64,000 nucleotides of DNA from Mycobacteriales bacterium (GCA_038276285.1 JBBPZR010000002.1:23454-87453); one strand, 5' to 3'. Counted from the stretch's first letter, positions 41,194-64,000 are shown. The notes: a model not told the origin generated them from the sequence alone. Program-made: numbers and translations.

Positions 41194-41211
41194 CACCGGA
41201 AGAGGAGTCTG

Positions 41212-42572: not shown

Positions 42573-42596
42573 TTTAGGAAGAGGAGTCACGTCCTG

Positions 42597-48476: not shown

Positions 48477-48995
48477 TCATCCGGTCGGGCTCAGGCAACG
48501 CAGCTGCCCGTCGCGCAGCGCGTAGAAGACCAGCGTCAGCTGTTCACGGGCCGCGGCGACGATCCCGATGTTGCGGCCGCGACGGGCCGTCACGCGCTCG
48601 CGGACGGCACCGATCCGGCTGGTTTGGGGCAGCATCTGCACCGACTCCACCGCCGCCCAGCGGACCAGCCGGGAACCCTGCTTGGTGATCCGTCCGCGGC
48701 GCACGTGGGTGTCGGACTCGTGATGCTTGGGGGTCAGCCCGGCCCAGGACGACAGCTGTGCCGGGCCGCCGAAGCGGTGCACGTCGCCGATCTCGGCGCA
48801 GAACACCGCGGCCAGCGTCGGCCCGATCCCGCCGATGGTCTGAACCGCCCGGTAGCCGGGGTCATTGGCCAGCCGGGCCGGCAGCATGCCCGCGAACAGG
48901 TCGATCTCGAAGTCGACGGCGGCGATCAGCCGGCGCGCCGAGTCCACCCGACTGCGGTAGGGCTCGGGCAGCGCGACCCGGTCGAGCAGCTCACT
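48477..48995 (-). pseudogene. IS110-family transposase C-terminal fragment (N-terminal catalytic domain missing)
   Basis: PGYRAVQTIGGIGPTLAAVFCAEIGDVHRFGGPAQLSSWAGLTPKHHESDTHVRRGRITKQGSRLVRWAAVE is the conserved IS110 C-domain. The upstream part of the ORF is non-homologous junk. Confidence 0.7.
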
Positions 48996-49480
48996 GCCTC
49001 CCGCGGGGCTTTGTCGCGGGAGGAGTCGTAGCGCTGCTGAAGGCGTTGGCATGGACTCCGACAAAGAGCCGCGGAGTCGGCGGCAGGAATCTTCTCGCCA
49101 CATCCACGGGGCGCTGGGTCGTGAGCGACAGAGAGTAGTTCGACCACAAGTACCTCTGGGGCATTGCCTTCTGGTCGCTGCCGACGTGGCGGCTTCCCGC
49201 GGCACAGGCTCGGTCCGCTGACAGCGGCCCTTCCAGGTTCGCCGCGACCGAACGTCGCCCAGCCGGAGGTCGAGTGGACCGTCTCTGCAGAGTATCGAAG
49301 AGCGCACGGTCCGCAGTCACATCCAAAGCAAGTGCGCGGAGGCTGCGGCCTCGGCCAGGCGGTGGTGTCGCCGGCTAGCTGAGATGTCGTTGAACATGCA
49401 GGCCGGTCGCCGTACAACAGCTGATCGTTCTACCGGCGTGGCGCACGCCGGACCAGCCGGAACGCGTCGGACCAAATGGC

Positions 49481-49536: not shown

Positions 49537-51021
49537 CTAGCTGACCCGACCTGTCACCGCGATGTTCCGCCACGCCTTCTGCGACGCGGCGTCGGTCAGG
49601 CTCCAGTTGCCCTGCGCGCCGGTGCCGTCCCAGTAGAGCCACATCTTGATCCGGCCCTGCGACTTGATCCAGGCCGCGTCGGTGGCGATCACCTGGGCGC
49701 GCTTGGCCTGCATGGTGGGGTTGGCGACGGTGCCCGGCTTCACGACGTACTGCCCGTACTCCGCGATGAGCATCGGCACGCTCTTGTCGAGCATAAAATT
49801 GTACCAGCTCATGAACTCGGGGTCGACGTTAAGCGCGAGGACCGTGGCCGAGTAGGTGTCGACCGCCGTGAAGTCGGCGTACCCGCTCCCGACCCACCAG
49901 GCCTGGGCGCCGCCCTTGCCGGCCAGCCGGGTCGGCTGCCACCAGTAGCTCATGTAGACCGGACCCCAGTGAATGGTCGGGTTGGCCCTCTTCACCACCG
50001 TGTACAGGTGCCGCTGCATGGCCACGAACTGCGGCCCGGTCATGTCGTTTTCCGGCTCGTGGTACGCGGTCGCGTAGACGCCCGTGGCCGGCACCGTCTT
50101 AGCCCACGCCGTCACCGCGGTGTCGTACTTGCCGGCCGCGGCACCGACGAAGTCGCCGCCAGGGGGCTTCCAGGAGACGAACGACCCGTGGCCTTGCGTG
50201 GCGTCGTCCTTGGCGCTCGACGTGGCGAAGCTGGCCGGCAGCGTCGAGTTGAACGAGCGCCGCATCTGCAGGGGCCCGATGGACGAGTTCGCCGCGTCGA
50301 AGCTGCTGATGCTGGCGTTCGGCACGTTGACTGCGGCGCCTACCCACATCGACTTCAGCGGAGGCGGCGTGTAGCTGACCGTCAGCGTCGGGCGCGGGGT
50401 GGCTCCGTCCTTCGCGTCGAAGCGGGCGGTGTCCGTCGTCGTGGCGGCGGTCACGGCGAAGGCGTACGTCCCATTGCCGCTTACTTTCGCGGCGAAGGCG
50501 ATGGAGCCTGTAGCCGAGGTGGGATACGCCGTGCCGAGGGACGTGCCCACCGGCGGCGCGTTGCGCATCGTGAGCGTGGATTCCGACCACGCCGTGATGG
50601 GCACCGTGGCTGCGCTCACCTGAGGGGGAAGGTGATGCGCAGTCCGGCTCAGCTGGAGCCTGGCGCTGATGCCAGTCGCGCCGGTCGGCACGCCCGCCAC
50701 GGTGAACTTCAGGTAACTCAGCCGCCGGTCGCGGTTGGCGCTGCCGGCGATCAGAATGCTCGAGGCGCCATAGTTCGCGTTCGGGTGGGCTGCGGAGACG
50801 TAGGAGTCCGCGACGGCGCCGAAGACCAGGCTCGGGGTCGAGGCCATCGCCGGCGACGGGCCGCCGGCGATCGTGGTGCCGACGGCGGTGGCGCATGCGA
50901 CCGCGGTGAGCACCGCTATCCGACGCCGGGCATAGCGTCGCAGCGAGGCGGCGGCAGACTGGCTGGGTGACCCGACGCGAGACTGTGCGGCGGCCCGGGA
51001 AGGGTTCGGGAGTGTGTGCAT
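49537..51021 (-). CDS. secreted DNRLRE-type domain plus clan GH-A glycoside hydrolase, paralogue 5 (inverted partner of 44505..45989)
   Basis: Also 494 aa and about 60% identical by eye to paralogue 3. Motifs are VADSYVSAAHPNANYG...NRDRRLSYLKF, AYHEPEN, MSYWW and LIAEYGQ. Confidence 0.7.
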   Translation of the reverse strand: MHTLPNPSRAAAQSRVGSPSQSAAASLRRYARRRIAVLTAVACATAVGTTIAGGPSPAMASTPSLVFGAVADSYVSAAHPNANYGASSILIAGSANRDRRLSYLKFTVAGVPTGATGISARLQLSRTAHHLPPQVSAATVPITAWSESTLTMRNAPPVGTSLGTAYPTSATGSIAFAAKVSGNGTYAFAVTAATTTDTARFDAKDGATPRPTLTVSYTPPPLKSMWVGAAVNVPNASISSFDAANSSIGPLQMRRSFNSTLPASFATSSAKDDATQGHGSFVSWKPPGGDFVGAAAGKYDTAVTAWAKTVPATGVYATAYHEPENDMTGPQFVAMQRHLYTVVKRANPTIHWGPVYMSYWWQPTRLAGKGGAQAWWVGSGYADFTAVDTYSATVLALNVDPEFMSWYNFMLDKSVPMLIAEYGQYVVKPGTVANPTMQAKRAQVIATDAAWIKSQGRIKMWLYWDGTGAQGNWSLTDAASQKAWRNIAVTGRVS

Positions 51022-51161: not shown

Positions 51162-51992
51162 ATGGCCGGGTTGCTGCTGATGCTCGCCGGCGGCGTGCTG
51201 GCTGTCTGCGCCGTCGGCGGCCTTGTCCTGACGCATCCCGTCCGACCGACGACGTGGCGCCGGGGCGGCGCGGCGCGGCGCCTGGTCGCCGCCCGCCACG
51301 AGCTGGTCGCGGCACTCGGCGCATCAACCGCCGCGGTCGTGGTGCTCCTCGCCGGCGTGGCCGCCACGGTCATCGTGTGCTGGCCGCTGGGCCGCCTTGC
51401 CGGCGGGCTGGAGCGGTCGGTCGACCTGCCGGTCTTCCGCTGGGGCGCCAGGCACCACTATCACGGCTGGATCCGGGTCAACGAGCTACTGACCCTGATG
51501 GGCAACCGGCCGCAGGTGAAGGCGGTCTGTCTCGTCTCGGCGGTGGTGCTGGCCTTGCTATGGCGGCGTCGCGGGTGGTGGGTGCCGCCGGTCGTCATCG
51601 CTTCGGCGTTCGGCTTCGAGAAGTACGGGCAGAAGCTGCTCGCGCTGGTCGTCCACCGCGGCCATCCGCCGACAACGCGGGGCACGTACCCCTCAGGCGG
51701 GGTTGCCCGGCTCGTGGCGATATACGGCGTCATCCTGTTCCTGGTGCTATTCACCTATCCCGGGGTCGGCCGCCGGTGGCGGGTGGCGCTGTGGACCATG
51801 TTCGGCATCGCCGCTTTCGTCGAGGGCTACACCCGGATCTACCTGCTCAAGCACTGGTTCACCGACGTCGTGGGGGGTTGGGTGTACGGCTCGCTGCTGC
51901 TGGCCACGCTGATCGCCGCGGCTTCGACGCTCGTGGAGCGCAACCGCGAGGAAGGACCCACGGCTGGATCGGCCTGGCGCGGGCGACGTTAA
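51162..51992 (+). CDS. PAP2-like membrane phosphatase family protein (variant motifs)
   Basis: About 6 TM segments. YPSGGVAR stands in place of PSGH, and TRIYLLKHWFTDVVGG fits SRxxxxxHxxxD. The family assignment is tentative. Confidence 0.5.
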   Translation: MAGLLLMLAGGVLAVCAVGGLVLTHPVRPTTWRRGGAARRLVAARHELVAALGASTAAVVVLLAGVAATVIVCWPLGRLAGGLERSVDLPVFRWGARHHYHGWIRVNELLTLMGNRPQVKAVCLVSAVVLALLWRRRGWWVPPVVIASAFGFEKYGQKLLALVVHRGHPPTTRGTYPSGGVARLVAIYGVILFLVLFTYPGVGRRWRVALWTMFGIAAFVEGYTRIYLLKHWFTDVVGGWVYGSLLLATLIAAASTLVERNREEGPTAGSAWRGRR

Positions 51993-52182: not shown

Positions 52183-53892
52183 GTGGTGGTCGCTATCACG
52201 CACAGTCCGGCAACGTACGAGGGGCGGGACTACGGCGACGTCATGCGGCGCCGCTGGTGGATCGTGGTCGCGGGGGCTGTGCTCGGTCTGCTCGTCGCGA
52301 TGGTCGCGACCAAGCTGCTGCCCAAGTCCTACACCTCGCCGACGTCGGTGCTCGTACTGTCTACGCCGGTGCCCGACGCCCAGATCGCGAACAGCCGCAC
52401 GTCGAGCGACATCAACCTCGACACCGAGTCGCAGCTCGTGCTTTCGATGGACGTTGCCGCGGCGGCCGGCAAGCTCCTGCACAGCTCGCAGTCGCCGAGA
52501 GACCTGGCGACCAACGTCACGGTGACCGTGCCACCGAACACCCAGGTCCTGCAGATCAGCTACTCCGACAACACGGCGCGCAAGGCGCAGCAAGGCTCAC
52601 ACGCCTTCGCGCTGGCGTACCTCGCCAACCGGCAGGCCCTATCCAAGGCCGCGTTGGACGCACAGATCAAAGGACAACAGGCGCAGGTGGTAGACCTGAC
52701 CAAGCGGCTGCAGGACGCCACCGGCAAGCTCGCGACCCTGCCGACGAACTCCCCCGACCGCGCCTTCGCGCAGGCTCAGGTCCAGGAACTGATCAACCAG
52801 GTGGGCGCGCTCGAGCAGAAGGTCAGCAGCCTGACGACGACGCCAGTCACGCCGGGGCGGATCATCTCCGACGCCGAGCTGCCAACCGGGCCGGGCAGCC
52901 CGAACACGCTGATCCTGCTGTCCGGCGGGCTGATGACCGGCCTGTTGCTCGGCTTTAGCGTGGCCGTCCTGCGCGAGCGGACCGACAAGAGGATCCGCCG
53001 GGGCTCCGATGTCGAGCGGCTGATCGACGTCCCGCTGCTCACCGCGCTGCCCGGACGCGCCTTGAGTGCGACGACCGCCGCCGGAATCGTCGACCAGTCC
53101 GGCGCGGCGGGCGCGGCCATCGCCCATCTGCGCAACACGGTCATCGCGGACCTCGGCCCGCACCGGCACGTCCTGCTCGTGGTGGGCGCGTCGACTGGGC
53201 CAGCCAGCCAGTTCCTCGCGACCAACCTCACAGCGTCGCTGGCCCGCGCCGGCCTGATCGCCACGCTGATGGCAGCGAACCTGCGCGACGCGGCCGCCGG
53301 TCCCACCGGCTCGCAGCAGCTCGGCGTGTCCGATTTCATGCTGCGCGAGCTCAGGGCGCAGGAGCTCACCACGCCTAGCGCCGACGTGCAGAGCATGAAC
53401 ATCGTCGGCCCGGGCACCCAGCCCGGGCTCGGGGCGGACCGGATGCAGACCGACAGGGCGCGCGAGCTGGTCGCCGACCTGCTGGCGAACGCCAACTACG
53501 TGGTGATCCTGGCGTCGTCCACGGCGATCAGCGCCGACGCGCAGACGCTAGCCCACCTGGCCGACGGCGTGATCGTCGTGGCCGAGCTGGGCCGGACCCG
53601 CAAGGACCAGCTGCTCGACGCCGGGCAGCAACTCGAGCGAGTCGGCGCCCGGGTGCTCGGCGCCGCCGTCGTGCCGCCCATCGGCCGACGCCGCGGCCAA
53701 CCAGGCACCGGGGGCAACGCCGCCACTCTTGGCCGCGCCGGCCGCCAACAGCAACTGGCCCAAAGCCGCCTCGACGCCGTGCAGCGCGACACCCACGGAG
53801 CCGGCGAACCCACGCCGGGCGGCGACGACGCTTCCACCACCCGCCGGCCGGCCCCGTTCAAGCAGGAGGCTAACTCCTGGCGCCGCGAGTGA
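52183..53892 (+). CDS. polysaccharide co-polymerase (Wzz domain) fused to a BY-kinase-like domain with degenerate Walker motifs
   Basis: N-terminus RDYGDVMRRRWWIVVAGAVLGLLVA...YTSPTSVLV (Wzz), a coiled-coil periplasmic part and a second TM segment (LILLSGGLMTGLLLGF). The C-domain aligns to BY-kinases but reads VVGASTGPASQF, not GxGKS/T. Walker A' reads LMAANLRD, not DxDxR, and Walker B reads VVILASST. There is no C-terminal Tyr cluster. Confidence 0.7.
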   Translation: MVVAITHSPATYEGRDYGDVMRRRWWIVVAGAVLGLLVAMVATKLLPKSYTSPTSVLVLSTPVPDAQIANSRTSSDINLDTESQLVLSMDVAAAAGKLLHSSQSPRDLATNVTVTVPPNTQVLQISYSDNTARKAQQGSHAFALAYLANRQALSKAALDAQIKGQQAQVVDLTKRLQDATGKLATLPTNSPDRAFAQAQVQELINQVGALEQKVSSLTTTPVTPGRIISDAELPTGPGSPNTLILLSGGLMTGLLLGFSVAVLRERTDKRIRRGSDVERLIDVPLLTALPGRALSATTAAGIVDQSGAAGAAIAHLRNTVIADLGPHRHVLLVVGASTGPASQFLATNLTASLARAGLIATLMAANLRDAAAGPTGSQQLGVSDFMLRELRAQELTTPSADVQSMNIVGPGTQPGLGADRMQTDRARELVADLLANANYVVILASSTAISADAQTLAHLADGVIVVAELGRTRKDQLLDAGQQLERVGARVLGAAVVPPIGRRRGQPGTGGNAATLGRAGRQQQLAQSRLDAVQRDTHGAGEPTPGGDDASTTRRPAPFKQEANSWRRE

Positions 53893-54920
53893 CCGTGCCG
53901 GCGGCGGCCCGGTCGCGCGTTGCGGCCGCCGTACCGGTCGTCGCCTGCCTGGTCCTAGCGGCCTGTTCCGTGTCGACCGACGTCGACCGGTCGACCGGCT
54001 TTCCGTCCACGCCTGCCACTACCCCACCGGCAGACGCGACCCCACCGCCGGCGGTCCGACCGATCCTCGCGCCCCTCACGGGGGTGCCCACCACCGCCGC
54101 CACGGCGGCGCGCCCGGCAGTGGCGGTGCCGATCACCGCGGGCAGCGTGGGACCGCCCTCCGGCCTCGGCCACGCCGACATCGTGTATGCGGTGTGGGAC
54201 GGTGCGGCCGGGGTCCGCTTGGCTGCGCTATTCCAGTCACAGGACGACGTTGCGGTCGGCCCGGTGGCCGGGCTGCGCCCGGAGGACGCCAAGCTGCTTC
54301 CGGTCGCCCATCCGGTGGTGGCGGCGGCGTCCAGCTACGACAAGTTCCTGCGCATGGGACAAGCCGCGGGCTTGAACATCGCGACGACGTACGCGCACCC
54401 CGAGGCCTACCGGCAGTCGACGACCGGCGCGGCGTACGCCTCGACGCCGGGGCTGCGCGCCCTCGCCGCCAGCGGTACGCTGCCGCCGCCGAATCTCTTC
54501 CCACTGGCCGCCCCCGACCAACCGCTGGCCCAGGTCGGACTGCACCCGGTGAGCCGGCTGAGCGTGCCGAGCGCGAGCCACCCGGTCTTCATCTGGACCT
54601 GGGACGCGACGGTCAAGCGGTGGCGGGCCACGGTCGGCGGCGCCACCGTCACGGCGGCGAACGTGGTGGTGCTCGCGATGCCGTTCAGGACGGTGCTCGC
54701 ACACTACCCGCAGGGCCCCCCGTTACCGACCGCGGATGTGTTCGGTGCCGGCAACGCCTACGCGATCTCGGCCGGGCACGGCGCGGCTGGCCGGTGGGCC
54801 CGGTCCGGGCCGCTGAAGTTGACCACGGTCGCGACCGCCGACGGCGTGCCGATGCGGTTTACCGCCGGCCCGACGTGGGTCATCATCATTCCGGTCGGCA
54901 ACGCCTGGTCGGTGAGCTGA
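53889..54920 (+). CDS. DUF3048-domain lipoprotein
   Basis: Lipobox LVLAACS, then APLTGVP....RPAVAVPI...PPSGLGHADIVYAV...G.RLAALF, the typical DUF3048 N-domain. A GTGA overlap joins it to the upstream gene. Confidence 0.7.
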   Translation: MTVPAAARSRVAAAVPVVACLVLAACSVSTDVDRSTGFPSTPATTPPADATPPPAVRPILAPLTGVPTTAATAARPAVAVPITAGSVGPPSGLGHADIVYAVWDGAAGVRLAALFQSQDDVAVGPVAGLRPEDAKLLPVAHPVVAAASSYDKFLRMGQAAGLNIATTYAHPEAYRQSTTGAAYASTPGLRALAASGTLPPPNLFPLAAPDQPLAQVGLHPVSRLSVPSASHPVFIWTWDATVKRWRATVGGATVTAANVVVLAMPFRTVLAHYPQGPPLPTADVFGAGNAYAISAGHGAAGRWARSGPLKLTTVATADGVPMRFTAGPTWVIIIPVGNAWSVS

Positions 54921-54924
54921 CTCA

Positions 54925-56358
54925 ATGACCATCGCGATCCTTCCCGCTGCACGCGCCCCCCGGCCGGCCTTCGGACGGTCCGCTCCAGGCCCGACCTCCC
55001 GGTGGTCGCTGGCGACCGGATGGCCGATGGCCGCCCTGCTTGTCGCGTACCCGCTGTGGTGGGCGCTGGGCCTCGGCGTCTTCATCTTCATCATCCTCGC
55101 TGTCCCCATGGCCTGGCACCTGATCCGGCTGCCCCGTGTGCGGATGCCACCCGGCTTCATCATCTGGGTGCTGTTCCTCGTCTGGTCCGTGGCCAGCCTC
55201 GTCATGCTGGGAACGAACCCGGTCGGCACCCAGCCGAACACCGCCAGCTCGCGGCTGCTGCCGACGGGGCTGCGCCTGCTGGAATACGCGGCGGTGACCG
55301 TCCTGCTGCTCTTCCTCGGCAACGTCTCGCTGGAGCGGCTATCGCAGCAGCGCCTGGTCCGCTACCTCGGCGTGATTTTCTTCTGGACGGTGACCGGCGG
55401 CGTCCTGGCGGTGCTCCTGCCGACCTTCCAGTTCACCTCGCCGCTGGAGTTGGTGCTGCCGTCCCACCTGCGCAACAACCTGTTCGTGCAGAGCCTGGTG
55501 CATCCCGCCCTCGCCCAGCTGCACGACGTGCTCGGCTACACCTCGCCCCGCCCGGCGGCCCCCTTCGGCTACACCAACATGTGGGGCAACAACCTTGCGA
55601 TCCTACTGATCTGGTTCGTCGTCGGCGCAGTGGCGCTGCGATCGCTGCGGCTGCGTCTGGTCGCGCTGGCGGTGGTCGTCGCGAGCTTGGTGCCCACCGT
55701 CTACTCGCTCAACCGGGGGCTGTGGATCGCGCTGTTGCTCTCCGGCCTCTACCTCGCGTTCCGGCTGATCGCTCAGGGCCGGCTGTGGGTGATCGGCGTG
55801 CTGACCGGCGTGGTGGTGGTGACGTACGCGGTCGTCGCGCTGTCCCCGCTGCAGCAGCTCATCGCCGCGCGGCTGGAGCACGGCAAGAGCAACGACACGC
55901 GAACGTTCACCACGGTTGAGGTGCTGCGGATCGCCAGGGACTCACCGATCCTCGGCTACGGTGACACCCGCAACGCGCTGGGCAGTTACCAGTCGGTCGC
56001 GGTGGGGAAGAACGCGAACTGCCCGCGCTGCGGCAACATCGCGCTCGGCAGCAACGGGCAGCTGTGGCTGGTGCTCGTTTCGAGCGGGTTCGTCGGCGTG
56101 GCGCTGTACGTGGGCTTCTTCCTGCATGCGGTCTGGCACTACCGACGGGACCGCACCGCGATTGGGGTCGGCGGCCTGCTCGCGGTTGGCCTGCCCCTGT
56201 TCTTCATGTTCGTGTACAACGCGATGGTGTCGCCGTTGGCGCTCTACATGATCTCGGTTGTGCTGCTGTGGCGGAACGAACAGCTGCACGACGCCGCGAG
56301 GGCGGAGGACACCGGTCAGGGAGGCGAGCGGCGGCCGCCCGCGCCGCTCCGCCGATGA
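54925..56358 (+). CDS. O-antigen ligase/polymerase-like (Wzy_C) membrane protein
   Basis: At least 10 TM segments. SLNRGLWIALLLSGLYLAF is followed by a large loop with GYGD.RNALG, the typical Wzy_C/O-antigen ligase layout. Confidence 0.7.
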   Translation: MTIAILPAARAPRPAFGRSAPGPTSRWSLATGWPMAALLVAYPLWWALGLGVFIFIILAVPMAWHLIRLPRVRMPPGFIIWVLFLVWSVASLVMLGTNPVGTQPNTASSRLLPTGLRLLEYAAVTVLLLFLGNVSLERLSQQRLVRYLGVIFFWTVTGGVLAVLLPTFQFTSPLELVLPSHLRNNLFVQSLVHPALAQLHDVLGYTSPRPAAPFGYTNMWGNNLAILLIWFVVGAVALRSLRLRLVALAVVVASLVPTVYSLNRGLWIALLLSGLYLAFRLIAQGRLWVIGVLTGVVVVTYAVVALSPLQQLIAARLEHGKSNDTRTFTTVEVLRIARDSPILGYGDTRNALGSYQSVAVGKNANCPRCGNIALGSNGQLWLVLVSSGFVGVALYVGFFLHAVWHYRRDRTAIGVGGLLAVGLPLFFMFVYNAMVSPLALYMISVVLLWRNEQLHDAARAEDTGQGGERRPPAPLRR

Positions 56359-57581
56359 GCCGACCGGAGCAGGCTGCTGGGCGCCTCCTGCCGGCGTCCA
56401 GCGTCACGCTGTTCGGCCTTGCCGAGCTGCTCTGGCCCAGCCCCGCCTCGATCACCACGAGCCGCGGCGGCGACCGCACGGTGGCCCAATACCTGCCCGT
56501 CCCGAGCACCGCAGACCCGCGGCTGCTCCTGCCGGCACGCCCTTGGCGCGCGGCCGCGGCAGCCGTACGTCACCAGCCGGCCGCGTCCACGAAGGCTCGG
56601 GTACGCCGCGAACTCGCCGCACTCGGGCTCGCCGCCGGTCTGGGCGAGCTGGTGCCGCGGCACCGGATCCGGGTTCACGCCGACCACCCCGTCGAAACGA
56701 TCGAGGTTTTCTTCGCTCGGCACTGGGATCGCCCGATCGTGCTGAGCATCCACCTCGGCAAGCCGCGCGCCAACCGCAAGCCGGTCGTCGGAATCCTGAG
56801 TCCGGCCGGTGCCGCCCTGGGCTTCGCAAAGATCGGCGTCAACGAGCTGACCCGCTCACTGGTGCGTACCGAGGCCAATGCGCTGGCCGTCGTCGCCCGC
56901 GCGAATCCACGGCAGCTGACCGCGGCGCGGGTGCTTCTGCAGGAGCGCTGGAACACGCTGGACGTAGTGGCGACGAGCCTGCTGCCGGTGTGGGAGGGCC
57001 GGCGACCGGTGCCGGTCGAATCCCTCCGGCGTGCCACGCAGGAGGTCCACGGCCTGGTGCCCACCGGCGAGCTCACCGTGTCGGACTGGCTCGCGGCGTC
57101 AGGGCTCCGCGACCGGCTGGCCGGACTGCCCGAGAGCCCGGCCAGCGCGGGTGTCCGTGGCGCGGTCGGCACGCTGGTCGACCGGGCCGGCGGGGTGAGG
57201 CTCGCCTGCGGAGCGTGGCACGGAGACTGGACCCCGTGGAACATGGCCTTCGTCGGCGGGCGGCTGCTGGTCTGGGACTGGGAGCGGTTCAGCGCGCCGG
57301 CTCCGGTCGGCTTCGACGCCCTGCATCACCGGCTGCAGGGAGCTTTGGTCTCGCAGCGGCGGCCGCCCCGGCAAGCGGTCCGGGAGCTCGGCGGCCAGGC
57401 CTACCAGCTGCTCGCCCCCTACGACGTAGGCCCGGCGGTCGTCCCGGTCATGGTCGTCGCGTACCTCGTCGAACTGGCGGGGCGCTACCTGCACGACGGG
57501 CAGGAAGCGGCCGGCGCCCGCCTCGGTCGGGTCGGCGACTGGCTCGTGCCGATGCTCGCTCAACTGGCGGGGCGGCTATGA
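56355..57581 (+). CDS. APH-like phosphotransferase (kinase-fold) protein
   Basis: Trimmed to ATG 56355 (ATGA overlap). The catalytic loop is AWHGDWTPWNM (HGDxxxxN), followed by LVWDWERF (DxE metal-binding equivalent). Confidence 0.6.
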   Translation: MSRPEQAAGRLLPASSVTLFGLAELLWPSPASITTSRGGDRTVAQYLPVPSTADPRLLLPARPWRAAAAAVRHQPAASTKARVRRELAALGLAAGLGELVPRHRIRVHADHPVETIEVFFARHWDRPIVLSIHLGKPRANRKPVVGILSPAGAALGFAKIGVNELTRSLVRTEANALAVVARANPRQLTAARVLLQERWNTLDVVATSLLPVWEGRRPVPVESLRRATQEVHGLVPTGELTVSDWLAASGLRDRLAGLPESPASAGVRGAVGTLVDRAGGVRLACGAWHGDWTPWNMAFVGGRLLVWDWERFSAPAPVGFDALHHRLQGALVSQRRPPRQAVRELGGQAYQLLAPYDVGPAVVPVMVVAYLVELAGRYLHDGQEAAGARLGRVGDWLVPMLAQLAGRL

Positions 57582-58480
57582 CACGGCAGGCCGGGGCCGG
57601 CCGGGCCGGCTTGCCGACCACCCGCCGGGTCCCCCGGCGGGTGAAGCCGGTGCTCCTCGCCGCGTCGCGCACGCTGGGGCGGGCCACCAGCCATGCGCGA
57701 GTGCTGCCGGGGTTCCTCGTCGTCGGGGCGCAGCGCTGCGGCACCACGTCGATGTACCGCACCCTGGCACAGCATCCAGCCACACTGAAGCCGGTGCGCC
57801 AGAAGGGCGTCCATTACTTCGACACCGGCTACGACAAGGGCCTGAGTTGGTACCGCGCGCACTTCCCGCTGCAGCGTACGGCGCTCGCCGTCGAGCGGCG
57901 CACCGGCGTGCGGCCGCTCGCCTTCGAGTCCAGCCCGTACTACATGTTCCACCCGTGGGCCCCGCAGCGGATCCAGGCGGACCTGCCGCAGCTCCGGCTG
58001 CTGGTGCTGCTGCGCGACCCGGTCGAGCGCGCCTATTCCGCGCACGCGCACGAGCTGGCACGCGGCTACGAGACCGAGCCGTTCGAGGCTGCCCTGGAGC
58101 TGGAACCTCAGCGGCTGCGCGGCGAGGTGGAGCGTATACTCGCCGACCCCGGCTATCGCAGCCACGCCCACCAGCACAACGCATACGTGCTGCGCGGCCA
58201 GTACATCGAGCAGCTCGAGCCGCTGGCCGGTCTGTTCGGCCGGGAGCGCATCCACGTCGTCGACAGCCACGACCTCTTCACCGCGCCGGAGGGCGCGTAC
58301 GCCGGCGTGCTGGAGTTCCTGGATCTGCCGCCGATGGGCGAGCCGGTGTTCGAGCGGCACAACGCGCGGCCCCGGTCGGCGCTGGCGGGCTCGGTGCGGG
58401 CGCGGCTCGAGGAGCACTTCCGGCCGTACGACGACCGCCTGGCGACCTGGCTGGACCGCGTCCCCTCCTGGCGCAGATGA
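57578..58480 (+). CDS. PAPS-dependent sulfotransferase (Sulfotransfer_1-like; same type as 32573..33448)
   Basis: Trimmed to ATG 57578 (ATGA overlap). 5'-PSB is FLVVGAQRCGTTSMY and 3'-PB is LVLLRDPVERAYSAH. Confidence 0.85.
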   Translation: MTRQAGAGRAGLPTTRRVPRRVKPVLLAASRTLGRATSHARVLPGFLVVGAQRCGTTSMYRTLAQHPATLKPVRQKGVHYFDTGYDKGLSWYRAHFPLQRTALAVERRTGVRPLAFESSPYYMFHPWAPQRIQADLPQLRLLVLLRDPVERAYSAHAHELARGYETEPFEAALELEPQRLRGEVERILADPGYRSHAHQHNAYVLRGQYIEQLEPLAGLFGRERIHVVDSHDLFTAPEGAYAGVLEFLDLPPMGEPVFERHNARPRSALAGSVRARLEEHFRPYDDRLATWLDRVPSWRR

Positions 58481-60057
58481 TGACGGCGTCCGACGAGGTT
58501 GCGTCGGCGGCAGTCGAGTCGCCGCTAGCCGAGGGCGACGTACGCCGGCTCGCCTCCGGCGCAGTGCTCAACCTCGCCGGCGCCGCAGTTTCCAGCGTGG
58601 TGAACATCGCGCTGGTCGTCACGATCACCCGCGGCGTGCCGAAAGCCGAGGCTGGCGTGTTCTTCGCCGCCACCTCGCTCTTCCTCATCCTCGCCATGGT
58701 GGCCAAGCTCGGCGCCAACACCGGCCTGGTCTACTTCGTGCCGCGGCTGCGCGTGTTGGGCCGACCCGACCTCATCGGGCGCCGCCTGCGCAACGCTCTT
58801 ATGGCGGTGCTGGCGGCTGCGGTGCTGCTCGGCGCGCTGCTCTGGACCTTTGCCGACCCCGCCGGCGACCTGGTCACTCGTGCGCACGGTGAGCAGGCGA
58901 CCGCGTACCTGCGGATTCTCGCGGTTTTGTTGCCGGCGGCGGTGCTGGCCGATGTCGCCCTCGCGGGCACCCGCGGCTTCCGGCACATGCGGCCGACGGT
59001 GCTGCTCGACCTGGCCGCTCGACCGATCCTGCAGCTGGCCTCGACGGTCCTCGTGGTGGCGCTCGACGCACCGCTCGCCTGGCTCGCGGTCGCCTGGGCC
59101 GCGCCGTACCTCCCCGAGATGCTCGCCGCGCTGGTCTGGCTCAGCCGGGTCCCGGAGCGGCGCGCCACGACCGCCACCACGGCGAACGTCGACGGGCTCG
59201 GGACCAGCGACTTCTGGCGCTTCACCGCGCCGCGGGCGCTCAACGCCGTCGTGCAGCTGGCGCTGCAGCGCCTCGACATCATCCTCATCGCGGTCCTGCG
59301 CGGCCCCCGCGAGGCGGCCATCTACACCGCGGCCACCCGGTTCCTCGTGGTCGGCCAACTCATCAGCCAGTCCATCTCCACGGTCGTCCAGCCCCGGCTC
59401 GCGGAGCTGCTTGCCCTGCGCGACCAGCACGGCGCCAGGATGGTCTACCAGGTGGCCACCTGCTGGGGGGTGCTAGTTAGCTGGCCGCTGTACCTGCTGG
59501 CCGTCGTGTTCTCGACCCAGCTGCTGGCTATCTTCGGCCGGGGGTACGCGGCCGGCGCCGGCGTCATCCTGCTGCTGGCAGCCTCGATGTTGGTCGCGAC
59601 GCTATGCGGCATGGTCAACGTCGTGCTCAACATGGCGGGGCGCACGACCTGGACGCTGGCCGACGGGCTGCTGGCGCTGGCCGTGATGGTCGGGATCGAT
59701 CTGGTGCTCATCCCGCAGCACGGCATCTTCGGGGCGGCGGTCGGCTGGGCGGCCGCGATCCTGGCCAACAACCTGATCCCCCTGGGTCAAGTCGCGACGT
59801 CGCTGCGGCTGCACCCCTTCGGCCCCGGCTCCTGGCGGGCAGCGCTGCTGGCCGGCGTCTGCTTCGGCGCGGTGCCCCTCGCGGTACGGGCGGTGGCCGG
59901 ATCCTCGCCGCGGGATATCGTGGTGGCGGTGGTCGGCGGTGCGCTCCTCTTCGCGGTCGGCTGCCACCGGCTGCAGCGGCAGCTGGCGCTGGACACCCTG
60001 CGAGGGCTGTGGCGTCGGCGCGCTCGCGGGCCAGCACTGGTCGGGGGGCCGGCGTGA
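58477..60057 (+). CDS. wzx: polysaccharide/oligosaccharide flippase (Wzx, MOP superfamily)
   Basis: Trimmed to ATG 58477 (ATGA overlap). It has about 12-14 TM segments, and the N-terminus RLASGAVLNLAGAAVSSVVNIALVVTITRG is typical of the polysaccharide biosynthesis protein family. Confidence 0.8.
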   Translation: MMTASDEVASAAVESPLAEGDVRRLASGAVLNLAGAAVSSVVNIALVVTITRGVPKAEAGVFFAATSLFLILAMVAKLGANTGLVYFVPRLRVLGRPDLIGRRLRNALMAVLAAAVLLGALLWTFADPAGDLVTRAHGEQATAYLRILAVLLPAAVLADVALAGTRGFRHMRPTVLLDLAARPILQLASTVLVVALDAPLAWLAVAWAAPYLPEMLAALVWLSRVPERRATTATTANVDGLGTSDFWRFTAPRALNAVVQLALQRLDIILIAVLRGPREAAIYTAATRFLVVGQLISQSISTVVQPRLAELLALRDQHGARMVYQVATCWGVLVSWPLYLLAVVFSTQLLAIFGRGYAAGAGVILLLAASMLVATLCGMVNVVLNMAGRTTWTLADGLLALAVMVGIDLVLIPQHGIFGAAVGWAAAILANNLIPLGQVATSLRLHPFGPGSWRAALLAGVCFGAVPLAVRAVAGSSPRDIVVAVVGGALLFAVGCHRLQRQLALDTLRGLWRRRARGPALVGGPA

Positions 60058-61010
60058 CCGCCACCGGCAACCGGCGGTCCGCACCGCGGCACGTGGAGTT
60101 GACTTGGTCCCAGGTGGCGCGGCTCGGCCTGGTGGGGCTGGCCTCCGACGTGCGGGACCGGCGCCGCGACGGGCCCGTCGGCGGCCCGCGGGTGGCCGTG
60201 CCGCTGCGTCGCCGCCTCGACCCGCGGGTCCGCGCGCCGATCTTCGTGATCGGTGCGCCCCGATCCGGGACGACGTTCCTGGGCCGCTGCGTCGGTCGGC
60301 TGCCGGAGGTCTCGTACCACTTCGAGCCGCGGCTGACCAAGGCGGCCGCTCGCTGCGTGTATGACGGCTCGTGGTCGGCGCAGCGGGCGGCTCGGGTGTT
60401 CCGCGGCTTCTACGGCGCGCTGCTGATCGCCGGCGGTGACGGTGGCCTGCGGTTCGCCGAGAAGAACCCGGAGAACTGCTTCATCGTGCCGTTCTTGTTC
60501 CGGACGTTCCCGGCCGCGCAGTTCGTACACATCGTCCGAGACGGCCGCGACGCGACCGTCTCGCATGCCCAGAAACCGTGGCTGAAAGCCGAGTCGGCGG
60601 CGTCGGGCCAGCGCGGCAGGGGCGGGGCCGCATGGGGGCCCCAGCCGCGCTTCTGGGTGGAGCCCGACCGGCACGAGGAGTTCCGATCGGTCTCCGACCT
60701 CGAACGCTCGGCGTGGTGCTGGCGCCGCTTCACCGAAGCGGCATTCGTTGGGCTCAGCACTCTACCGGCAGACCGGCTCCTCAGGGTGCGCTACGAGTCG
60801 ATGGTGCGCGATCCACGGGCCACTGCGGTGTCCCTCGGGGAGTTCCTGGGTCAGCCGGCCGGGGCCGGCCAGGACGCGCTGCGTACGGCGCTGGATGAGG
60901 CCAGCCCGTCGTCGGTCGGGCGCTGGCGGCCGGCACTGGACGAGCACGAGGCCGAGCTGGTCGCCCGACAATGCGGCAGCCTGCTGAATGAGCTTGGGTA
61001 CGACGACTGA
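60054..61010 (+). CDS. PAPS-dependent sulfotransferase (Sulfotransfer_3-like)
   Basis: GTG 60054 (GTGA overlap). 5'-PSB is IFVIGAPRSGTTFLG and 3'-PB is VHIVRDGRDATVS. Confidence 0.8.
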   Translation: MTATGNRRSAPRHVELTWSQVARLGLVGLASDVRDRRRDGPVGGPRVAVPLRRRLDPRVRAPIFVIGAPRSGTTFLGRCVGRLPEVSYHFEPRLTKAAARCVYDGSWSAQRAARVFRGFYGALLIAGGDGGLRFAEKNPENCFIVPFLFRTFPAAQFVHIVRDGRDATVSHAQKPWLKAESAASGQRGRGGAAWGPQPRFWVEPDRHEEFRSVSDLERSAWCWRRFTEAAFVGLSTLPADRLLRVRYESMVRDPRATAVSLGEFLGQPAGAGQDALRTALDEASPSSVGRWRPALDEHEAELVARQCGSLLNELGYDD

Positions 61011-61954
61011 TGGCCGGGCCGCCGCTGCTCGTCACCGGGTTGCCCCGGACCGGTACCAGCTGGGTCGGCAAGACGTTGGAGGCCAGCGGCCAGGTCGTCT
61101 ACATCAACGAGCCGCTGAATCCGCAGCACCCACCGGGTGGCTCGCCTGGTGTGCTCAACGCTTCGGTGGCGCATCGCTACCAGTACATCTGCGCGGACAA
61201 CGACGACGGCTGGCGGCCGGCGTTTTCCGACACCCTCCGCCTGCGTTACCACCCGGTGGCCGAGCTCCGGCGCAACAGGGGCGCCTACGACCTGGCCCGA
61301 ATGGCCAAGTACTCCACGTCGTTCACGGCGGGGCGGCTGCGGGGCCGGCGGGCGATGCTGGACGACCCCTGGGCAATCGTCTCGATCCCGTGGCTGGTCG
61401 AGCAGATGGGCTGCCAGCCGGTCGTGCTGGTCCGCCGGCCGCAGTCCTTCGCCGGTAGCTGGCGCAGGCTCGGCTGGCGGGTGGACTTCCACGACCTGCT
61501 CACGCAGCCGCAACTCCTACGTGACGTCCTCGGCCCCTACGAGCAGGAGATGCGGACGCTGTCCGGGTCGGCCGACTGGGTTGCCCAGATCAGCCTGCTC
61601 TGGACCGCCATGTATGCCGCCGTAGCGGATCTCGCCGACCGGATGCCCGAGATCACGGTGGTGCGCTACGAGGATCTCGCGGCCGAGCCGGTGCCCCGAT
61701 TTCGCGAGCTGTACGACGCCCTCGGGCTTCCCTGGACCGCCGATGTCGAGGCCGAGGTGACGAGGGCAACGACGGCCAAGGGCATCGCACCCGCCTTCCG
61801 CTGGAACCTGCGCGGTGGGCTCTCGCGCACCGGCTACCGGCCGATGGACAGCCGCAAGGCGCTCACGTCGTATCAGGAGGTCCTCACCGACGAGGAGGTC
61901 GACCGGATCTGCGCTCTCACGGCCGGTGTGACCAAGCGGTTCTACGACGGCTAG
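61010..61954 (+). CDS. sulfotransferase-family protein (divergent)
   Basis: TGATG junction with the upstream gene. The N-terminal P-loop-like element LLVTGLPRTGTSWVGK is present, and VVLVRRPQSFAGSW lies at the expected 3'-PB position. Confidence 0.7.
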   Translation: MAGPPLLVTGLPRTGTSWVGKTLEASGQVVYINEPLNPQHPPGGSPGVLNASVAHRYQYICADNDDGWRPAFSDTLRLRYHPVAELRRNRGAYDLARMAKYSTSFTAGRLRGRRAMLDDPWAIVSIPWLVEQMGCQPVVLVRRPQSFAGSWRRLGWRVDFHDLLTQPQLLRDVLGPYEQEMRTLSGSADWVAQISLLWTAMYAAVADLADRMPEITVVRYEDLAAEPVPRFRELYDALGLPWTADVEAEVTRATTAKGIAPAFRWNLRGGLSRTGYRPMDSRKALTSYQEVLTDEEVDRICALTAGVTKRFYDG

Positions 61955-61965
61955 ACGCCCAGCTG

Positions 61966-62919
61966 TCAGACGCCCCGGCCGTACCGGTGCAGCACCTTCA
62001 GCACCGTCTCCCCCGATACCAGGCGAGTTGTTACCAGCAGGGCCACGACGCCCCGCCATTCCCGCCAGTGCCGGCGCAGCGCGCGCACGGCCCATCGGCG
62101 AGCGTTTCGGCCGTCGCCCAGGCAGGCGTAGGCGAATCCCAGCTGGCCATAGACCCGGGCCGCGCCGACCCGGTGCCGACCGATGCCGGCATGCCGGCGG
62201 AGCATCCACTCGAGGGACTCGATCTTGCTCTCCCACTGCCGGGAGAAGAAGGAGGTGCGTCCCCACCGCACCCGGACCAGCGGCCGGTCCACATGCACGA
62301 TCGGGAGCTCGGCGGAGGCCCGCAGCAGCAGGTCCCAGTCCTCGTTCTGCCCCCCTGGGATCTCCTCGTCGACGAACCCGATGTCCTCGAGCAATGACCG
62401 CCGGAACAGGAACGTCGAGGAATGCAGCATCGCCATCCGGGAGCGCAGCAGCTGCTCCTGCGGGACGGTGTCGGTACCGGCCAGCCGGGGGCTGGTGTGC
62501 CCGTCGAAGGCCACCATGATGCTGCAGGTGCAGAACCGTGCTCCGGGCTTGGCCTGCAGGGCATCGACCTGGGCGGCCAGCTTGCCCGGCAGCCACTGGT
62601 CGTCGTCGTCGCAGAAGGCAACTAGCGCGTTGCCCGCGTTCTCCGCGTTGTCCGGCGCGGCGTTCTCCCCGAGGATGCGATCCAGGGCGGCGATGCCAGT
62701 GTTGCGCGCCCCGGCCAGGCCGGGACGGCGGGAGTTGGTCATGACCTCCACGGCGCTACTGGCGAGGCTCTGATCGGGCGTGGTTCCGTCGTACACGATC
62801 ACCACCCTGATCGGCCCGTCGTAGTCTTGCGACAGCACGCCGTCAATGGCCGCACGGAGCAATTCGGGGCGGTCCCGAGTGGGGATCACGACGCCGATCG
62901 AGGGCGGGGCGCCGCTCAT
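61966..62919 (-). CDS. family 2 glycosyltransferase
   Basis: IGVVIPTRDRPELLRAAIDGVLSQ, a DxD-type FCDDDDQW and the GT-A fold order. Confidence 0.85.
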   Translation of the reverse strand: MSGAPPSIGVVIPTRDRPELLRAAIDGVLSQDYDGPIRVVIVYDGTTPDQSLASSAVEVMTNSRRPGLAGARNTGIAALDRILGENAAPDNAENAGNALVAFCDDDDQWLPGKLAAQVDALQAKPGARFCTCSIMVAFDGHTSPRLAGTDTVPQEQLLRSRMAMLHSSTFLFRRSLLEDIGFVDEEIPGGQNEDWDLLLRASAELPIVHVDRPLVRVRWGRTSFFSRQWESKIESLEWMLRRHAGIGRHRVGAARVYGQLGFAYACLGDGRNARRWAVRALRRHWREWRGVVALLVTTRLVSGETVLKVLHRYGRGV

Positions 62920-63857
62920 GGCGAGCTCGGCCGGCGCCCGAGGTAGCCGTAGCGAGCCAGCATCGGCAGTGTCAGCGCGGTGACGGAGCGCCGGTACGTC
63001 GGCCGCAGGGCCGCCCGCCAGGCATCGTCGGGACGGATCGGCACGACGCCGGTACGAAAGCGCATCGGGTTGCCCGACGTGGTGTGCCCGGGTGACAGCT
63101 CGACCTGCCGGTCACCGACGAAGCCCAGAGCCCGATCATTGGTGGCGATGCCGGCAAACCCGGCGATGGCGCGGATGCTGGACCGCGGCTGGGCCACGAA
63201 GTCTTCGTACCGCACCCGCAGGATCGGTGTGCCCAGCCGGCCCAGCAGCGCGAAGACCGCATTGTGGCTGTCCCAGAGCAGAGCCGACTTCGCTGGCGAA
63301 TACCGGGTCATCATTTCCCCGGGGTCACCGGCCTCGGGCCGCGGCACCTGCTTTGTCCAGGAGTACGCGACCGCCCGGCTGTCGCGCACGCAGTGCACGA
63401 CCCGCAGGCCGATGTCCGGCGATCCGCGCAGGCAGAAGGCCAGCGATGGGTGCTTGCTTGAGTCGATGACAACGCTGGCGCCAGAGACCTCGGCGGCCGC
63501 GGCGTAGACCTTGCGGTAGTAGCCGAGATACTCCTCGAGCGGACCGCCCCGGTCGCCCCCGGCCGGTTGACGCGCCAGCCGGGGGATGAACCGCGTGCGG
63601 TCCACTGCGGCCCGCAGGTGCCCGATCCTCACGGGGTCGACCGCCGACCAGCCGCCGAAGGCCACCTCGCCCACCTGGCACCAGAACGGACAGCGGCTGA
63701 ACGCCTCGCCGCACCCGCACGACTCGTCCAGCACCAGGCTGCGCTCCCACAGATGCACGATCTCGCCCAGTGCGACCGCACCGGGAAGCTCCCCGAGCAC
63801 GCGCTCCAGTAGTGTCGTACCGCTGCGGCCCAACCCACCTAGGAAAAGCACTCTCAC
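62916..63857 (-). CDS. sulfotransferase-family protein (Stf0-like, with Cys-rich insert)
   Basis: MRVLFLGGLGRSGTTLLERVLG (5'-PSB) and VVHCVRDSRAVAYSW (3'-PB). A 4-nt overlap joins it to the downstream GT2 gene. Confidence 0.8.
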   Translation of the reverse strand: MRVLFLGGLGRSGTTLLERVLGELPGAVALGEIVHLWERSLVLDESCGCGEAFSRCPFWCQVGEVAFGGWSAVDPVRIGHLRAAVDRTRFIPRLARQPAGGDRGGPLEEYLGYYRKVYAAAAEVSGASVVIDSSKHPSLAFCLRGSPDIGLRVVHCVRDSRAVAYSWTKQVPRPEAGDPGEMMTRYSPAKSALLWDSHNAVFALLGRLGTPILRVRYEDFVAQPRSSIRAIAGFAGIATNDRALGFVGDRQVELSPGHTTSGNPMRFRTGVVPIRPDDAWRAALRPTYRRSVTALTLPMLARYGYLGRRPSSP

Positions 63858-63863
63858 GGGCGG

Positions 63864-64000
63864 TCAGCCAACCCGGAGCCGTTGCGGATTGAAGTACGGA
63901 TCACCGGCCAGGCCGCCGAACTGTTTGATCGCAGCCGGATCGTCGGTCAGCTGGTAGGCGCGCTTCGCCGCATGGCCGGCCGGATTGGAGTCGAAATAGC
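63864..64000 (-). CDS. 3' end of an unidentified gene (partial, continues beyond the window)
   Basis: Hand translation of the minus strand gives ...YFDSNPAGHAAKRAYQLTDDPAAIKQFGGLAGDPYFNPQRLRVG with a stop at 63864-66. It has coding-like codon bias, and I recognise no family. Confidence 0.3.
   Translation of the reverse strand, partial: YFDSNPAGHAAKRAYQLTDDPAAIKQFGGLAGDPYFNPQRLRVG

Follow-up and report, generated by a model that had tools for sequence, protein, structure and literature searches.

A wps-type gene cluster for a predicted, heavily sulfated surface polysaccharide in an uncultured actinomycete

Organization of the locus

A stretch of 64,000 nucleotides from the genome of an uncultured actinomycete (Mycobacteriales bacterium, GCA_038276285.1, JBBPZR010000002.1:23454-87453; hereafter the window), with a G+C content of 64-75%, carries a wps-type gene cluster (Table 1) whose predicted product is a surface polysaccharide with a high degree of sulfation. 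A first-pass annotation, made from the sequence alone, had proposed ten open reading frames (ORFs) at 52183-63857, which encode proteins of a Wzx/Wzy-type pathway, a kinase and four sulfotransferases (STs), and all ten are present. The seven junctions between the plus-strand genes were confirmed by direct reading of the sequence: GTGA at 53889, a 4-nt gap at 54921-54924 followed by ATG at 54925, ATGA at 56355, 57578 and 58477, GTGA at 60054 and TGATG at 61008-61012. The two minus-strand genes, ST4 and the family 2 glycosyltransferase (GT2), likewise overlap by 4 nt (TCAT at 62916), and the two operons converge, with their stop codons at 61954 and 61966 only 11 nt apart. The stop/start overlaps indicate translational coupling of the operon genes. 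An independent gene caller selected later starts for three genes (52186, 53895 and 55027); two of the junctions, the 53889 overlap and the gap of 4 nt, thus hinge on which start codons are used. Neither these later starts nor the sub-threshold Pfam scores considered below change the overall picture.

Table 1. Features of the cluster and the adjoining block, with their occurrence among the 61 related loci that have complete 10-kb flanks
Feature	Position	Strand	Evidence	Related loci
ST5, heparan-sulfate-like	32573..33448	+	Sulfotransfer_1 5e-13; adjoins mfd	
PUA_2/degenerate ATP-sulfurylase N-terminus fused to APS kinase	38580..39944	+	APS_kinase 1e-53; PUA_2 9e-21	41/61, beside Wzz or ppc
TauE/SafE-family anion permease	39872..40888	+	TauE 7e-40; ~11 TM segments; start codon uncertain	
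c-di-AMP (ydaO) riboswitch upstream of GH26a	41052..41206	+	Rfam RF00379, 40.4 bits (gathering score 38)	
GH26-like hydrolase a (GH26a)	41212..42321	+	Glyco_hydro_26 1e-9; N-terminal anchor or signal, one TM segment	
c-di-AMP (ydaO) riboswitch upstream of GH26b	42431..42585	+	RF00379, 85.6 bits, E 1.6e-18	
GH26-like hydrolase b (GH26b)	42597..43604	+	Glyco_hydro_26 3e-6; 65% identical to GH26a	
Secreted CBM96 protein with GH26-like C-terminal half (494 aa)	44505..45989	+	CBM96 1e-23; half aligns with GH26c, E 2e-7	
Hypothetical secreted protein, distant GH26-like paralogue	46896..47969	-	BLASTP to GH26a/b/c, 1e-4 to 2e-5	
IS110-family transposase, inserted in accessory block, outside pathway	48477..49307	-	Transposase_20 2e-20	
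Second secreted CBM96 protein with GH26-like half (494 aa)	49537..51021	-	CBM96 1e-18	
PAP2-family membrane phosphatase	51162..51992	+	PAP2 8e-9	15/61, inside cluster
Polysaccharide co-polymerase (Wzz/PCP-2-like), catalytically dead BY-kinase domain	52183..53892	+	Wzz 3e-5; GNVR 6e-5	58/61
DUF3048 lipoprotein	53889..54920	+	DUF3048 6e-9 (N); DUF3048_C 3e-10; lipobox LAAC	6/61
Wzy-like polymerase, O-antigen-ligase-like domain	54925..56358	+	Wzy_C 5e-7; ~10-12 TM segments	59/61
APH/fructosamine-kinase-fold kinase, WpsI-like	56355..57581	+	PF01636 in homologues; motifs; structure model	61/61
ST1, heparan-sulfate-3-OST-like, core, WpsH-like	57578..58480	+	Sulfotransfer_1 7e-12; Sulfotransfer_3 1e-10; PDB 3bd9 4e-16, 3rnl 2e-17	61/61, directly after kinase
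Wzx flippase (MOP superfamily)	58477..60057	+	MatE 2.5e-13; Polysacc_synt 2.7e-7; ~13 TM segments	59/61
ST2, accessory	60054..61010	+	Sulfotransfer_3 6e-24	6/61 (62-66% identity), plus shorter locus L016
ST3, accessory	61010..61954	+	Sulfotransfer_3 1e-11	6/61 (54-58% identity in L007, L026, L045, L066; 25-28% in L047, L060)
GT2 glycosyltransferase, WpsA-like	61966..62919	-	Glycos_transf_2 5e-16; paired with ST4	52/61, paired with ST4
ST4, core, WpsB-like	62916..63857	-	Sulfotransfer_3 6e-12	52/61, paired with GT2
Third GH26-like gene (GH26c, WpsE-like, 372 aa), 3' end; runs off window	63864..64000	-	Glyco_hydro_26 2e-4	60/61
cysN fragment	beyond 64000, after GH26c	-	GTP-eEF1A_C 5e-29 (CysN C-terminus)	
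GT26 (TagA/WecG family)				51/61
Methyltransferase				38/61
APH, aminoglycoside phosphotransferase; APS, adenosine-5'-phosphosulfate; BY, bacterial tyrosine; c-di-AMP, cyclic di-AMP; PCP, polysaccharide co-polymerase; 3-OST, 3-O-sulfotransferase; TM, transmembrane.

Relationship to wps-1 and distribution of the cluster

Animals, algae and cyanobacteria are well-documented producers of sulfated polysaccharides; for actinomycetes, a full-text literature search found a single direct precedent, a gene-based proposal in one sporangium-forming species. The cluster concerned is wps-1 of Actinoplanes missouriensis (AMIS_7280-7380, WpsA-K), reported by Tezuka and Ohnishi (Appl Environ Microbiol, June 2026; PMC13390465). 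It encodes a GT2 (WpsA), a sulfotransferase (WpsB), a GT26 (WpsC), a DUF4262 protein (WpsD), a GH26 protein (WpsE), a SAM methyltransferase (WpsF), Wzx (WpsG), a heparan-sulfate-type sulfotransferase (WpsH), a kinase-like protein (WpsI), Wzy (WpsJ) and Wzz (WpsK), and a sulfurylase/APS-kinase gene, AMIS_7390, adjoins it (PMC13390465). Deletion of wpsA, C, G, H, I, J or K, or of AMIS_7390, yields squashed sporangia and blocks spore release, while the wpsF deletion gives distorted, interconnected sporangia with reduced spore release; wpsB and wpsE deletions are milder and deletion of wpsD has no effect (PMC13390465). The authors propose a sulfated polysaccharide as the product, awaiting experimental verification, and did not survey the distribution of the cluster (PMC13390465). 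Their report outdates the premise of the first-pass annotation that actinobacterial sulfated products are mainly glycolipids and small molecules rather than Wzy-type polymers.

Every member of the wps-1-type core set is present at the locus studied here, which shares with wps-1 the genes for Wzz, Wzy, the kinase-like protein, the heparan-sulfate-type ST, Wzx, GH26, a second ST that overlaps the GT2 gene and an adjacent sulfurylase/APS kinase; the predicted product, a sulfated Wzx/Wzy polysaccharide, is the same. Loci fetched from Actinoplanes species have the exact wps-1 content and order, including GT26, DUF4262 and methyltransferase genes, and are syntenic with the window at 37-62% identity, a comparison made with these species and not with the AMIS proteins themselves. 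Unlike wps-1, which has two STs, the window carries four, along with the DUF3048 lipoprotein, the PAP2 phosphatase and a 10-kb extra GH26-like/CBM96 block in which two c-di-AMP riboswitches and an IS110 element are found, and its ST4-GT2 pair is inverted relative to the main operon. Searches with the Actinoplanes proteins (tblastn) found no GT26 (WpsC), methyltransferase (WpsF) or DUF4262 (WpsD) gene in the window and its extension to 65.3 kb; by analogy with the related locus L007, the GT26 gene may lie beyond that point.

The first-pass annotation had suggested a survey of this gene order across Actinobacteria, and a scan with the kinase alignment of one genome per GTDB species identified at least 572 confirmed relatives in Actinomycetota; the genome that contains the window is not one of the representatives fetched. 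Independently, an HMMER scan of 1.84 billion representative proteins returned 696 kinase clusters (50% identity) at E <=1e-30. The window proteins were mapped by tblastn on the best 80 of the at least 572 loci, and the counts given here and in Table 1 come from the 61 with full 10-kb flanks. The recurring core is Wzz-Wzy-kinase-ST1-Wzx ... GH26 ... ST4-GT2, with the APS kinase next to ppc, and the kinase-ST1-Wzx adjacency is kept across families of Actinomycetota. Carriers include Actinoplanes, Paractinoplanes, Dactylosporangium, Catellatospora, Hamadaea, Longispora, Rhizocola and Nocardioides as well as Streptosporangiaceae, Sporichthyaceae and Solirubrobacterales metagenome-assembled genomes (MAGs). 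The number of STs is graded: six loci have one, 46 have two, six have three, and four, five and six are found in one locus each (L059, L045 and L026, respectively), which places the four STs of the window in the upper tail without making them unique. The closest full-length relative among the 80 mapped loci, L007, belongs to an uncultured Actinomycetota MAG and has the order ppc-APSK-TauE-GH26-Wzz-DUF3048-Wzy-Kin-ST1-Wzx-ST3-GH26-ST4-GT2. The phosphoenolpyruvate carboxylase (PEPC) of the window shares 78-84% identity with homologues from actinomycete MAGs, against no more than 67% for the cultured genera listed. The host is an uncultured lineage, so a role in sporangia is not implied.

In the window (35845-39944) and in at least ten distant relatives (L007, L009, L011, L019, L036, L051, L054, L058, L067 and L068), ppc lies directly 5' of the sulfurylase/APS kinase gene, and this conserved chromosomal position indicates that the locus is old and vertically inherited. 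Such a position beside ppc would also suit a secondary cell-wall glycopolymer that is anchored to peptidoglycan (teichuronic-acid-like, with a GlcNAc-ManNAc-type linkage unit) rather than a free exopolysaccharide or capsule. Enzymes of the TagA/WecG family act on undecaprenyl-pyrophosphate-linked GlcNAc in the wall teichoic acid and enterobacterial common antigen pathways, and a GT26 of this family occurs in 51 of the 61 relatives; moreover, ydaO riboswitches of actinomycetes usually control cell-wall hydrolases, and GH26-like genes stand behind such riboswitches in the window. We nevertheless regard wall anchoring, which is the most serious alternative and differs solely in the fate of the product, as unlikely, since neither an LCP-family ligase gene nor a GT26 gene is seen in the window, and the phenotype of A. 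missouriensis points to a substance of the sporangium matrix (PMC13390465).

Chain assembly proteins

Functions were assigned from Pfam matches, one structure model and searches of solved structures, and for the operon proteins the Pfam assignments agree with those made by eye in the first-pass annotation. The first gene of the plus-strand operon encodes the PCP. In addition to the Wzz and GNVR matches, it displays domain-level similarity, far below the cut-offs, to TIGR01006 (chain-length determinant) and TIGR01007 (tyrosine autokinase), two hydrophobic segments on either side of ~200 residues, and a C-terminal domain homologous to the BY-kinases BceF, CapB, VpsO, Wzc and Etk (E 3e-7 to 2e-4), which together mark it as the co-polymerase of the pathway. 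With the BY-kinase/PCP-2 proteins Wzc, CapAB, BceF and VpsO it shares the two-TM periplasmic coiled-coil domain and the cytoplasmic P-loop domain; unlike them, it lacks the Walker A lysine, the aligned acidic residues and the C-terminal tyrosine cluster. The Walker A sequence GxxxxGK[ST] is replaced by GASTGPASQF (GK[ST] by ASQ), and at the positions aligned with Walker A' and B the acidic residues have become Ala or Asn (MAANLRD, ILASST). None of the BY-kinase motifs is kept, and an active BY-kinase was rejected on this alignment, in keeping with the earlier description of the protein as a Wzz with a pseudo-BY-kinase domain. The lysine is missing in every PCP homologue extracted, from more than 60 other genomes, indicating that the pseudokinase state is a property of the family and not the result of local decay.

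The second gene encodes a lipoprotein with both DUF3048 halves and a lipobox, as had been proposed; neither the literature nor NCBIfam yielded a function for DUF3048. The Wzx assignment is well founded, with MatE (50.5 bits) and Polysacc_synt (30.7 bits) both above their gathering scores and the hydrophobic segments expected of a flippase, and the GT2 assignment likewise stands. The PAP2 phosphatase encoded just upstream would, judging from its family, recycle undecaprenyl pyrophosphate.

The third gene encodes a protein with the TM segments and the sub-threshold Wzy_C match of a Wzy/O-antigen-ligase-like protein, at the position of WpsJ. PF04932 spans O-antigen ligases, PglL-type O-oligosaccharyltransferases and polymerases, and at 30.0 bits against a gathering score of 31.7 the sequence cannot separate polymerase from ligase. 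With a ligase or O-oligosaccharyltransferase, the acceptor of a short sulfated oligosaccharide would be a protein or lipid, for example a lipoprotein, and no long polymer would be made; the presence of a lipoprotein gene between wzz and wzy would fit this activity. The DUF3048 gene is, however, found in only six relatives while the PCP, which argues for polymerization, is conserved in nearly all, and the endo-acting GH26-like hydrolases that carry CBM96 point to a polymer as their substrate; we therefore consider transfer of a short oligosaccharide very improbable and favor a polymerase.

Sulfotransferases and the APH-fold kinase

The four STs of the cluster carry Pfam matches and intact motifs for binding of 3'-phosphoadenosine-5'-phosphosulfate (PAPS), as the first-pass annotation had indicated; each of ST1-ST5 passes the gathering cut-off of one or more sulfotransferase families (PF00685, PF13469). 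The 5'-phosphosulfate-binding (PSB) loop GxxR/KxGT[TS] is kept in all five, and the 3'-phosphate-binding (PB) motif reads RD...S in ST1, ST2, ST4 and ST5 and RR...S in ST3. The description of ST1-ST4 as being of different types is fair, as these proteins are mutually almost unalignable (at most 31% identity over short stretches); the only alignable pair is ST1 and ST5 (32% identity over 160 aa). On these motifs, ST1-ST4 are predicted to bind PAPS and to transfer the sulfuryl group to a saccharide. The sulfotransferase motifs are strongly conserved in ST1 orthologues.

ST1 and ST5 resemble the animal heparan sulfate 3-O-sulfotransferases (3-OSTs) and the sulfotransferase domain of N-deacetylase/N-sulfotransferase (NDST), with alignments that span the entire fold (E 4e-16 to 5e-11); the shared features are the PSB loop, an HxFD motif and the 3'-PB motif RDP..R..S. 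Where the animal 3-OSTs have their catalytic Glu, a Gly is found in ST1 and in most ST1 orthologues, as part of the highly conserved sequence KGVHYFD. Both are bacterial and cytoplasmic, unlike the animal enzymes, and the acceptor is presumably the lipid-linked unit. ST5 retains the catalytic Glu of the 3-OSTs (KELHYFD), unlike its distant paralogue ST1. The ST5 gene had been reported as a fifth sulfotransferase upstream of the cluster; the gene is as described and is set apart from the cluster by a DNA ligase gene and ppc; its membership in the cluster is uncertain.

The kinase has no Pfam match of its own, its scores falling below the reporting level. Among its homologues, which number more than 1,100, some are annotated as PF01636 (APH), and the HGDWTPWN and DWE motifs are invariant in an alignment of 28 sequences. 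An AlphaFold (AF2) model built from this alignment (pLDDT 88.4, pTM 0.86) has the bilobal fold, HxDxxxxN loop and D-x-E/G motif of the APH/choline-kinase/fructosamine-kinase group. The best structures retrieved with Foldseek (3jr1, 3w0m, 4r7b, 6hwk and 5jy7; probability 1.0, TM-score 0.5-0.64 on the target) comprise fructosamine-3-kinase (FN3K), APH(4)-Ia, the choline kinase LicA, an actinobacterial glucosamine kinase and a maltokinase; these neighbors are sugar or small-molecule kinases and not Hanks-type protein kinases. The motifs, homologues and fold bear out the earlier assignment as an APH-like kinase, and the enzyme probably phosphorylates a sugar. The PCP lacks the Walker A lysine in all of the at least 60 homologues checked, and an APH-fold kinase is a constant member of these systems.

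No membrane-spanning segments are predicted in the STs, the GT2 or the kinase, which suggests that modification of the unit should occur in the cytoplasm, before flipping. ST2-ST4 have weak matches only, to tyrosylprotein, Teg and CurM sulfotransferases: ST3 is weakly similar to Teg12/Teg14 (E ~1e-3), and ST2 and ST4 to the sulfotransferase domain of CurM (PDB 4gox; E 4e-3 and 9e-4, respectively). Such similarities would be expected if the STs and the kinase tailored a small molecule or glycolipid, like the mycobacterial Stf and glycopeptide Teg/StaL enzymes, and Wzx and Wzy were merely adjacent. Translational coupling of the ST and kinase genes with wzy and wzx and the kinase-ST1-Wzx adjacency across Actinomycetota families argue otherwise. 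In addition, no polyketide synthase, nonribosomal peptide synthetase, lipid or glycopeptide genes occur in the 64 kb, and in A. missouriensis the wpsH, kinase and wzx/wzy knockouts are alike, with wpsB milder (PMC13390465). The first-pass annotation had named flanks belonging to a small-molecule or lipid cluster as one observation that would speak against a surface glycan; the window outside the cluster is all housekeeping, and a small-molecule tailoring cluster was rejected as highly improbable.

PAPS supply and extent of the cluster

The gene at 38580 fuses a PUA_2/degenerate ATP-sulfurylase N-terminus to an APS kinase with an intact P-loop (GLSGSGKST); it is the counterpart of AMIS_7390 and is predicted to supply PAPS. 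This part of the "PAPS module" proposed at 38580-40888 stands. The second gene of the module encodes instead a TauE/SafE permease, which probably moves sulfate or sulfite, and the ATP sulfurylase gene cysN is located beyond the window end. The pair of APS kinase and TauE genes is also found directly upstream of the cluster in L007, L009, L011 and L015.

The expectation that the cluster continues past base 64000 proved correct. A 16.6-kb Logan contig (L001/L002), identical to the window, reaches 1.3 kb beyond the window end, inside cysN, and reveals on the minus strand upstream of ST4 the third GH26-like gene followed by the C-terminal domain of CysN; a homologue search with this CysN fragment recovered no full-length CysN of the same genome. 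The cluster is therefore larger than first noted, extending from ~38.6 kb to beyond 65.3 kb. In L007, the corresponding flank (17587-21139, minus strand; read by eye from translations) contains in series a cysQ/inositol-monophosphatase-like gene (WIIDPLDGT), cysD, cysN and GT26, a set for PAPS synthesis and, probably, removal of 3'-phosphoadenosine-5'-phosphate (PAP). By synteny with L007 alone, GT26, cysD and cysQ would be expected beyond the window.

A model for synthesis of the polymer

These observations lead us to propose that the locus, homologous to wps-1, probably directs the Wzx/Wzy-dependent assembly of a strongly anionic surface or extracellular polysaccharide with short repeats that is sulfated and probably phosphorylated. 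A WecA/TagO-type priming transferase encoded elsewhere would start an undecaprenyl-pyrophosphate-linked sugar, which GT2, and in most relatives also the TagA/WecG-like GT26, would extend. On the cytoplasmic face, the soluble PAPS-dependent ST1-ST4 would add sulfate esters to the unit and the soluble APH-fold kinase a phosphate, with PAPS coming from the APS kinase at 38.6 kb together with CysN beyond 64 kb and, presumably, CysD, while TauE would carry the sulfur anion. The decorated unit would then be flipped across the membrane by Wzx and polymerized by the Wzy-like protein under control of the PCP, whose BY-kinase domain should no longer be able to bind ATP canonically. PAP2 would recycle the undecaprenyl pyrophosphate, and membrane-anchored or secreted GH26-like hydrolases, two with an alginate-type CBM96 and two behind c-di-AMP riboswitches, would trim or remodel the polymer. 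The gene functions in this model rest on sequence or structure evidence; the substrates and the order of steps are inferred, that of sulfation, phosphorylation and flipping from the predicted location of the proteins.

The repeat-unit sulfated glycan put forward by the first-pass annotation is thus supported by every element that sequence tools could address, sulfation of the polymer itself being a prediction. Several points weigh against it. No carrier of the cluster, A. missouriensis included, has so far yielded a sulfated polymer, and the chemistry is the main uncertainty. The Wzz, GNVR and Wzy_C matches score just below the Pfam gathering cut-offs, and these calls rest also on topology and on synteny with the published cluster; no operon protein reaches a curated NCBIfam cut-off, the family being one that lacks NCBIfam curation. 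As had been recognized, there is only one glycosyltransferase in the 64 kb, and no initiating phosphoglycosyl transferase of the WbaP or WecA type was found in the 50 window ORFs scanned or in the 1.3-kb extension, the genome sequence retrieved reaching to ~65.3 kb. In many O-antigen clusters the priming transferase is encoded elsewhere, and its absence here, together with the TagA/WecG-type GT26 of most relatives, suggests a housekeeping primer of the WecA/TagO type. Finally, ST1 has Gly in place of the catalytic Glu of 3-OSTs, and the four STs may differ in the repeat unit on which they act.

A bolder version of this model can be offered only tentatively: the product would be a glycosaminoglycan-like polymer with a di- or trisaccharide repeat, at least three distinct sulfate esters plus phosphate, and heparin-like charge; within the ancient ppc-linked locus, inherited vertically by hundreds of soil Actinomycetota that mostly form no sporangia, it would mark the most heavily sulfated extreme. 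As the PCP kinase domain is dead throughout the family, the APH-fold kinase, always adjacent, might in that case provide regulatory phosphorylation, instead of or besides phosphorylating a sugar.

Comparison with other systems and significance

A demonstrated sulfated product is known for the xss (synechan) cluster of Synechocystis sp. PCC 6803 (Maeda et al., eLife 2021; PMC8205485). Like the window, xss combines a Wzx/Wzy/PCP pathway with STs of distinct subfamilies inside an exopolysaccharide cluster, and differs in having two STs and eight glycosyltransferases, which give a long repeat unit, and neither an APH-type kinase nor GH26 (PMC8205485). It is also plasmid-borne, with XssQ/R/S regulators (PMC8205485); the comparison is one of gene content. 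Two reports on the marine Gammaproteobacteria Vibrio sp. KMM 8419 and Cobetia marina KMM 1449 appear to concern sulfated capsular polysaccharides (PMC11641403, PMC11766843), whose clusters are there likewise discussed with Wzy-type assembly and sulfotransferases. The comparison is by description only, and these capsules differ in belonging to Gram-negative bacteria of different phyla.

A system of this kind is already published (wps-1), and the window is not categorically new. It is a distinct variant of wps-1, with doubled STs, a lipoprotein and PAP2, no visible GT26 or methyltransferase, expanded riboswitch-linked hydrolases and an uncultured host lineage. To the published picture the analysis adds the breadth and antiquity of the locus, which extends far outside Actinoplanes (at least 572 species-level genomes), the graded number of STs, from one to six per locus, and a co-polymerase that is a pseudokinase throughout the family and invariably accompanied by an APH-fold kinase. 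Confirmation of the chemistry would reveal in soil bacteria a new and abundant class of anionic polymers of the envelope or matrix and provide enzymes for making glycosaminoglycan-like materials; four-ST variants would then be a natural source in which to seek position-specific bacterial carbohydrate sulfotransferases.

The GH26-like block and its riboswitches

The 10-kb block that separates TauE from the operon (41212-51021) has a reduced G+C content (0.64-0.69). It carries five GH26-like domains that are paralogues of one another, two as fusions with CBM96, and is broken by the IS110 transposase. The two CBM96 paralogues are 59% identical. The protein encoded at 46896-47969 has no Pfam match. 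The single GH26-like gene that relatives have here suggests that the block arose by local expansion. Topology prediction places N-terminal anchors on the hydrolases. The founding member of CBM96 binds alginate (PMC9971899), and from family knowledge the GH26-like proteins would trim the polymer.

The two ydaO riboswitches end 5-11 nt 5' of GH26-like genes, an unusual riboswitch cargo. No Rfam match to this arrangement was found in seven related loci, and a home-made nhmmer riboswitch profile detected similar elements in only two of the 80 loci, L050 and L021; in L050 the riboswitch-like element stands 5' of a homologue of the 46896-47969 protein. A riboswitch-GH26 unit as a conserved part of the system was rejected on these counts, and the arrangement is a feature of the window genome and not of the family.

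Neighboring genes

The rest of the window is occupied by housekeeping genes, including eno, ppx, divIC, mazG, mfd, an ATP-dependent ligase gene, ppc and genes for transsulfuration enzymes and a thiolase. A tRNA-Sec gene (anticodon tca, 70 bits; 1112-1204, minus strand) lies beside a gene for an AIRS-domain protein (1270-2274, plus strand) that is probably SelD (selenophosphate synthetase), which makes use of selenocysteine by the organism probable. A Cys/Met-metabolism PLP enzyme (7442-8866) and a cystathionine-beta-synthase-like protein (PALP plus CBS; 10088-11473) are both encoded on the minus strand; these sulfur amino-acid genes lie ~30 kb from the sulfation locus, and their proximity is probably coincidental.

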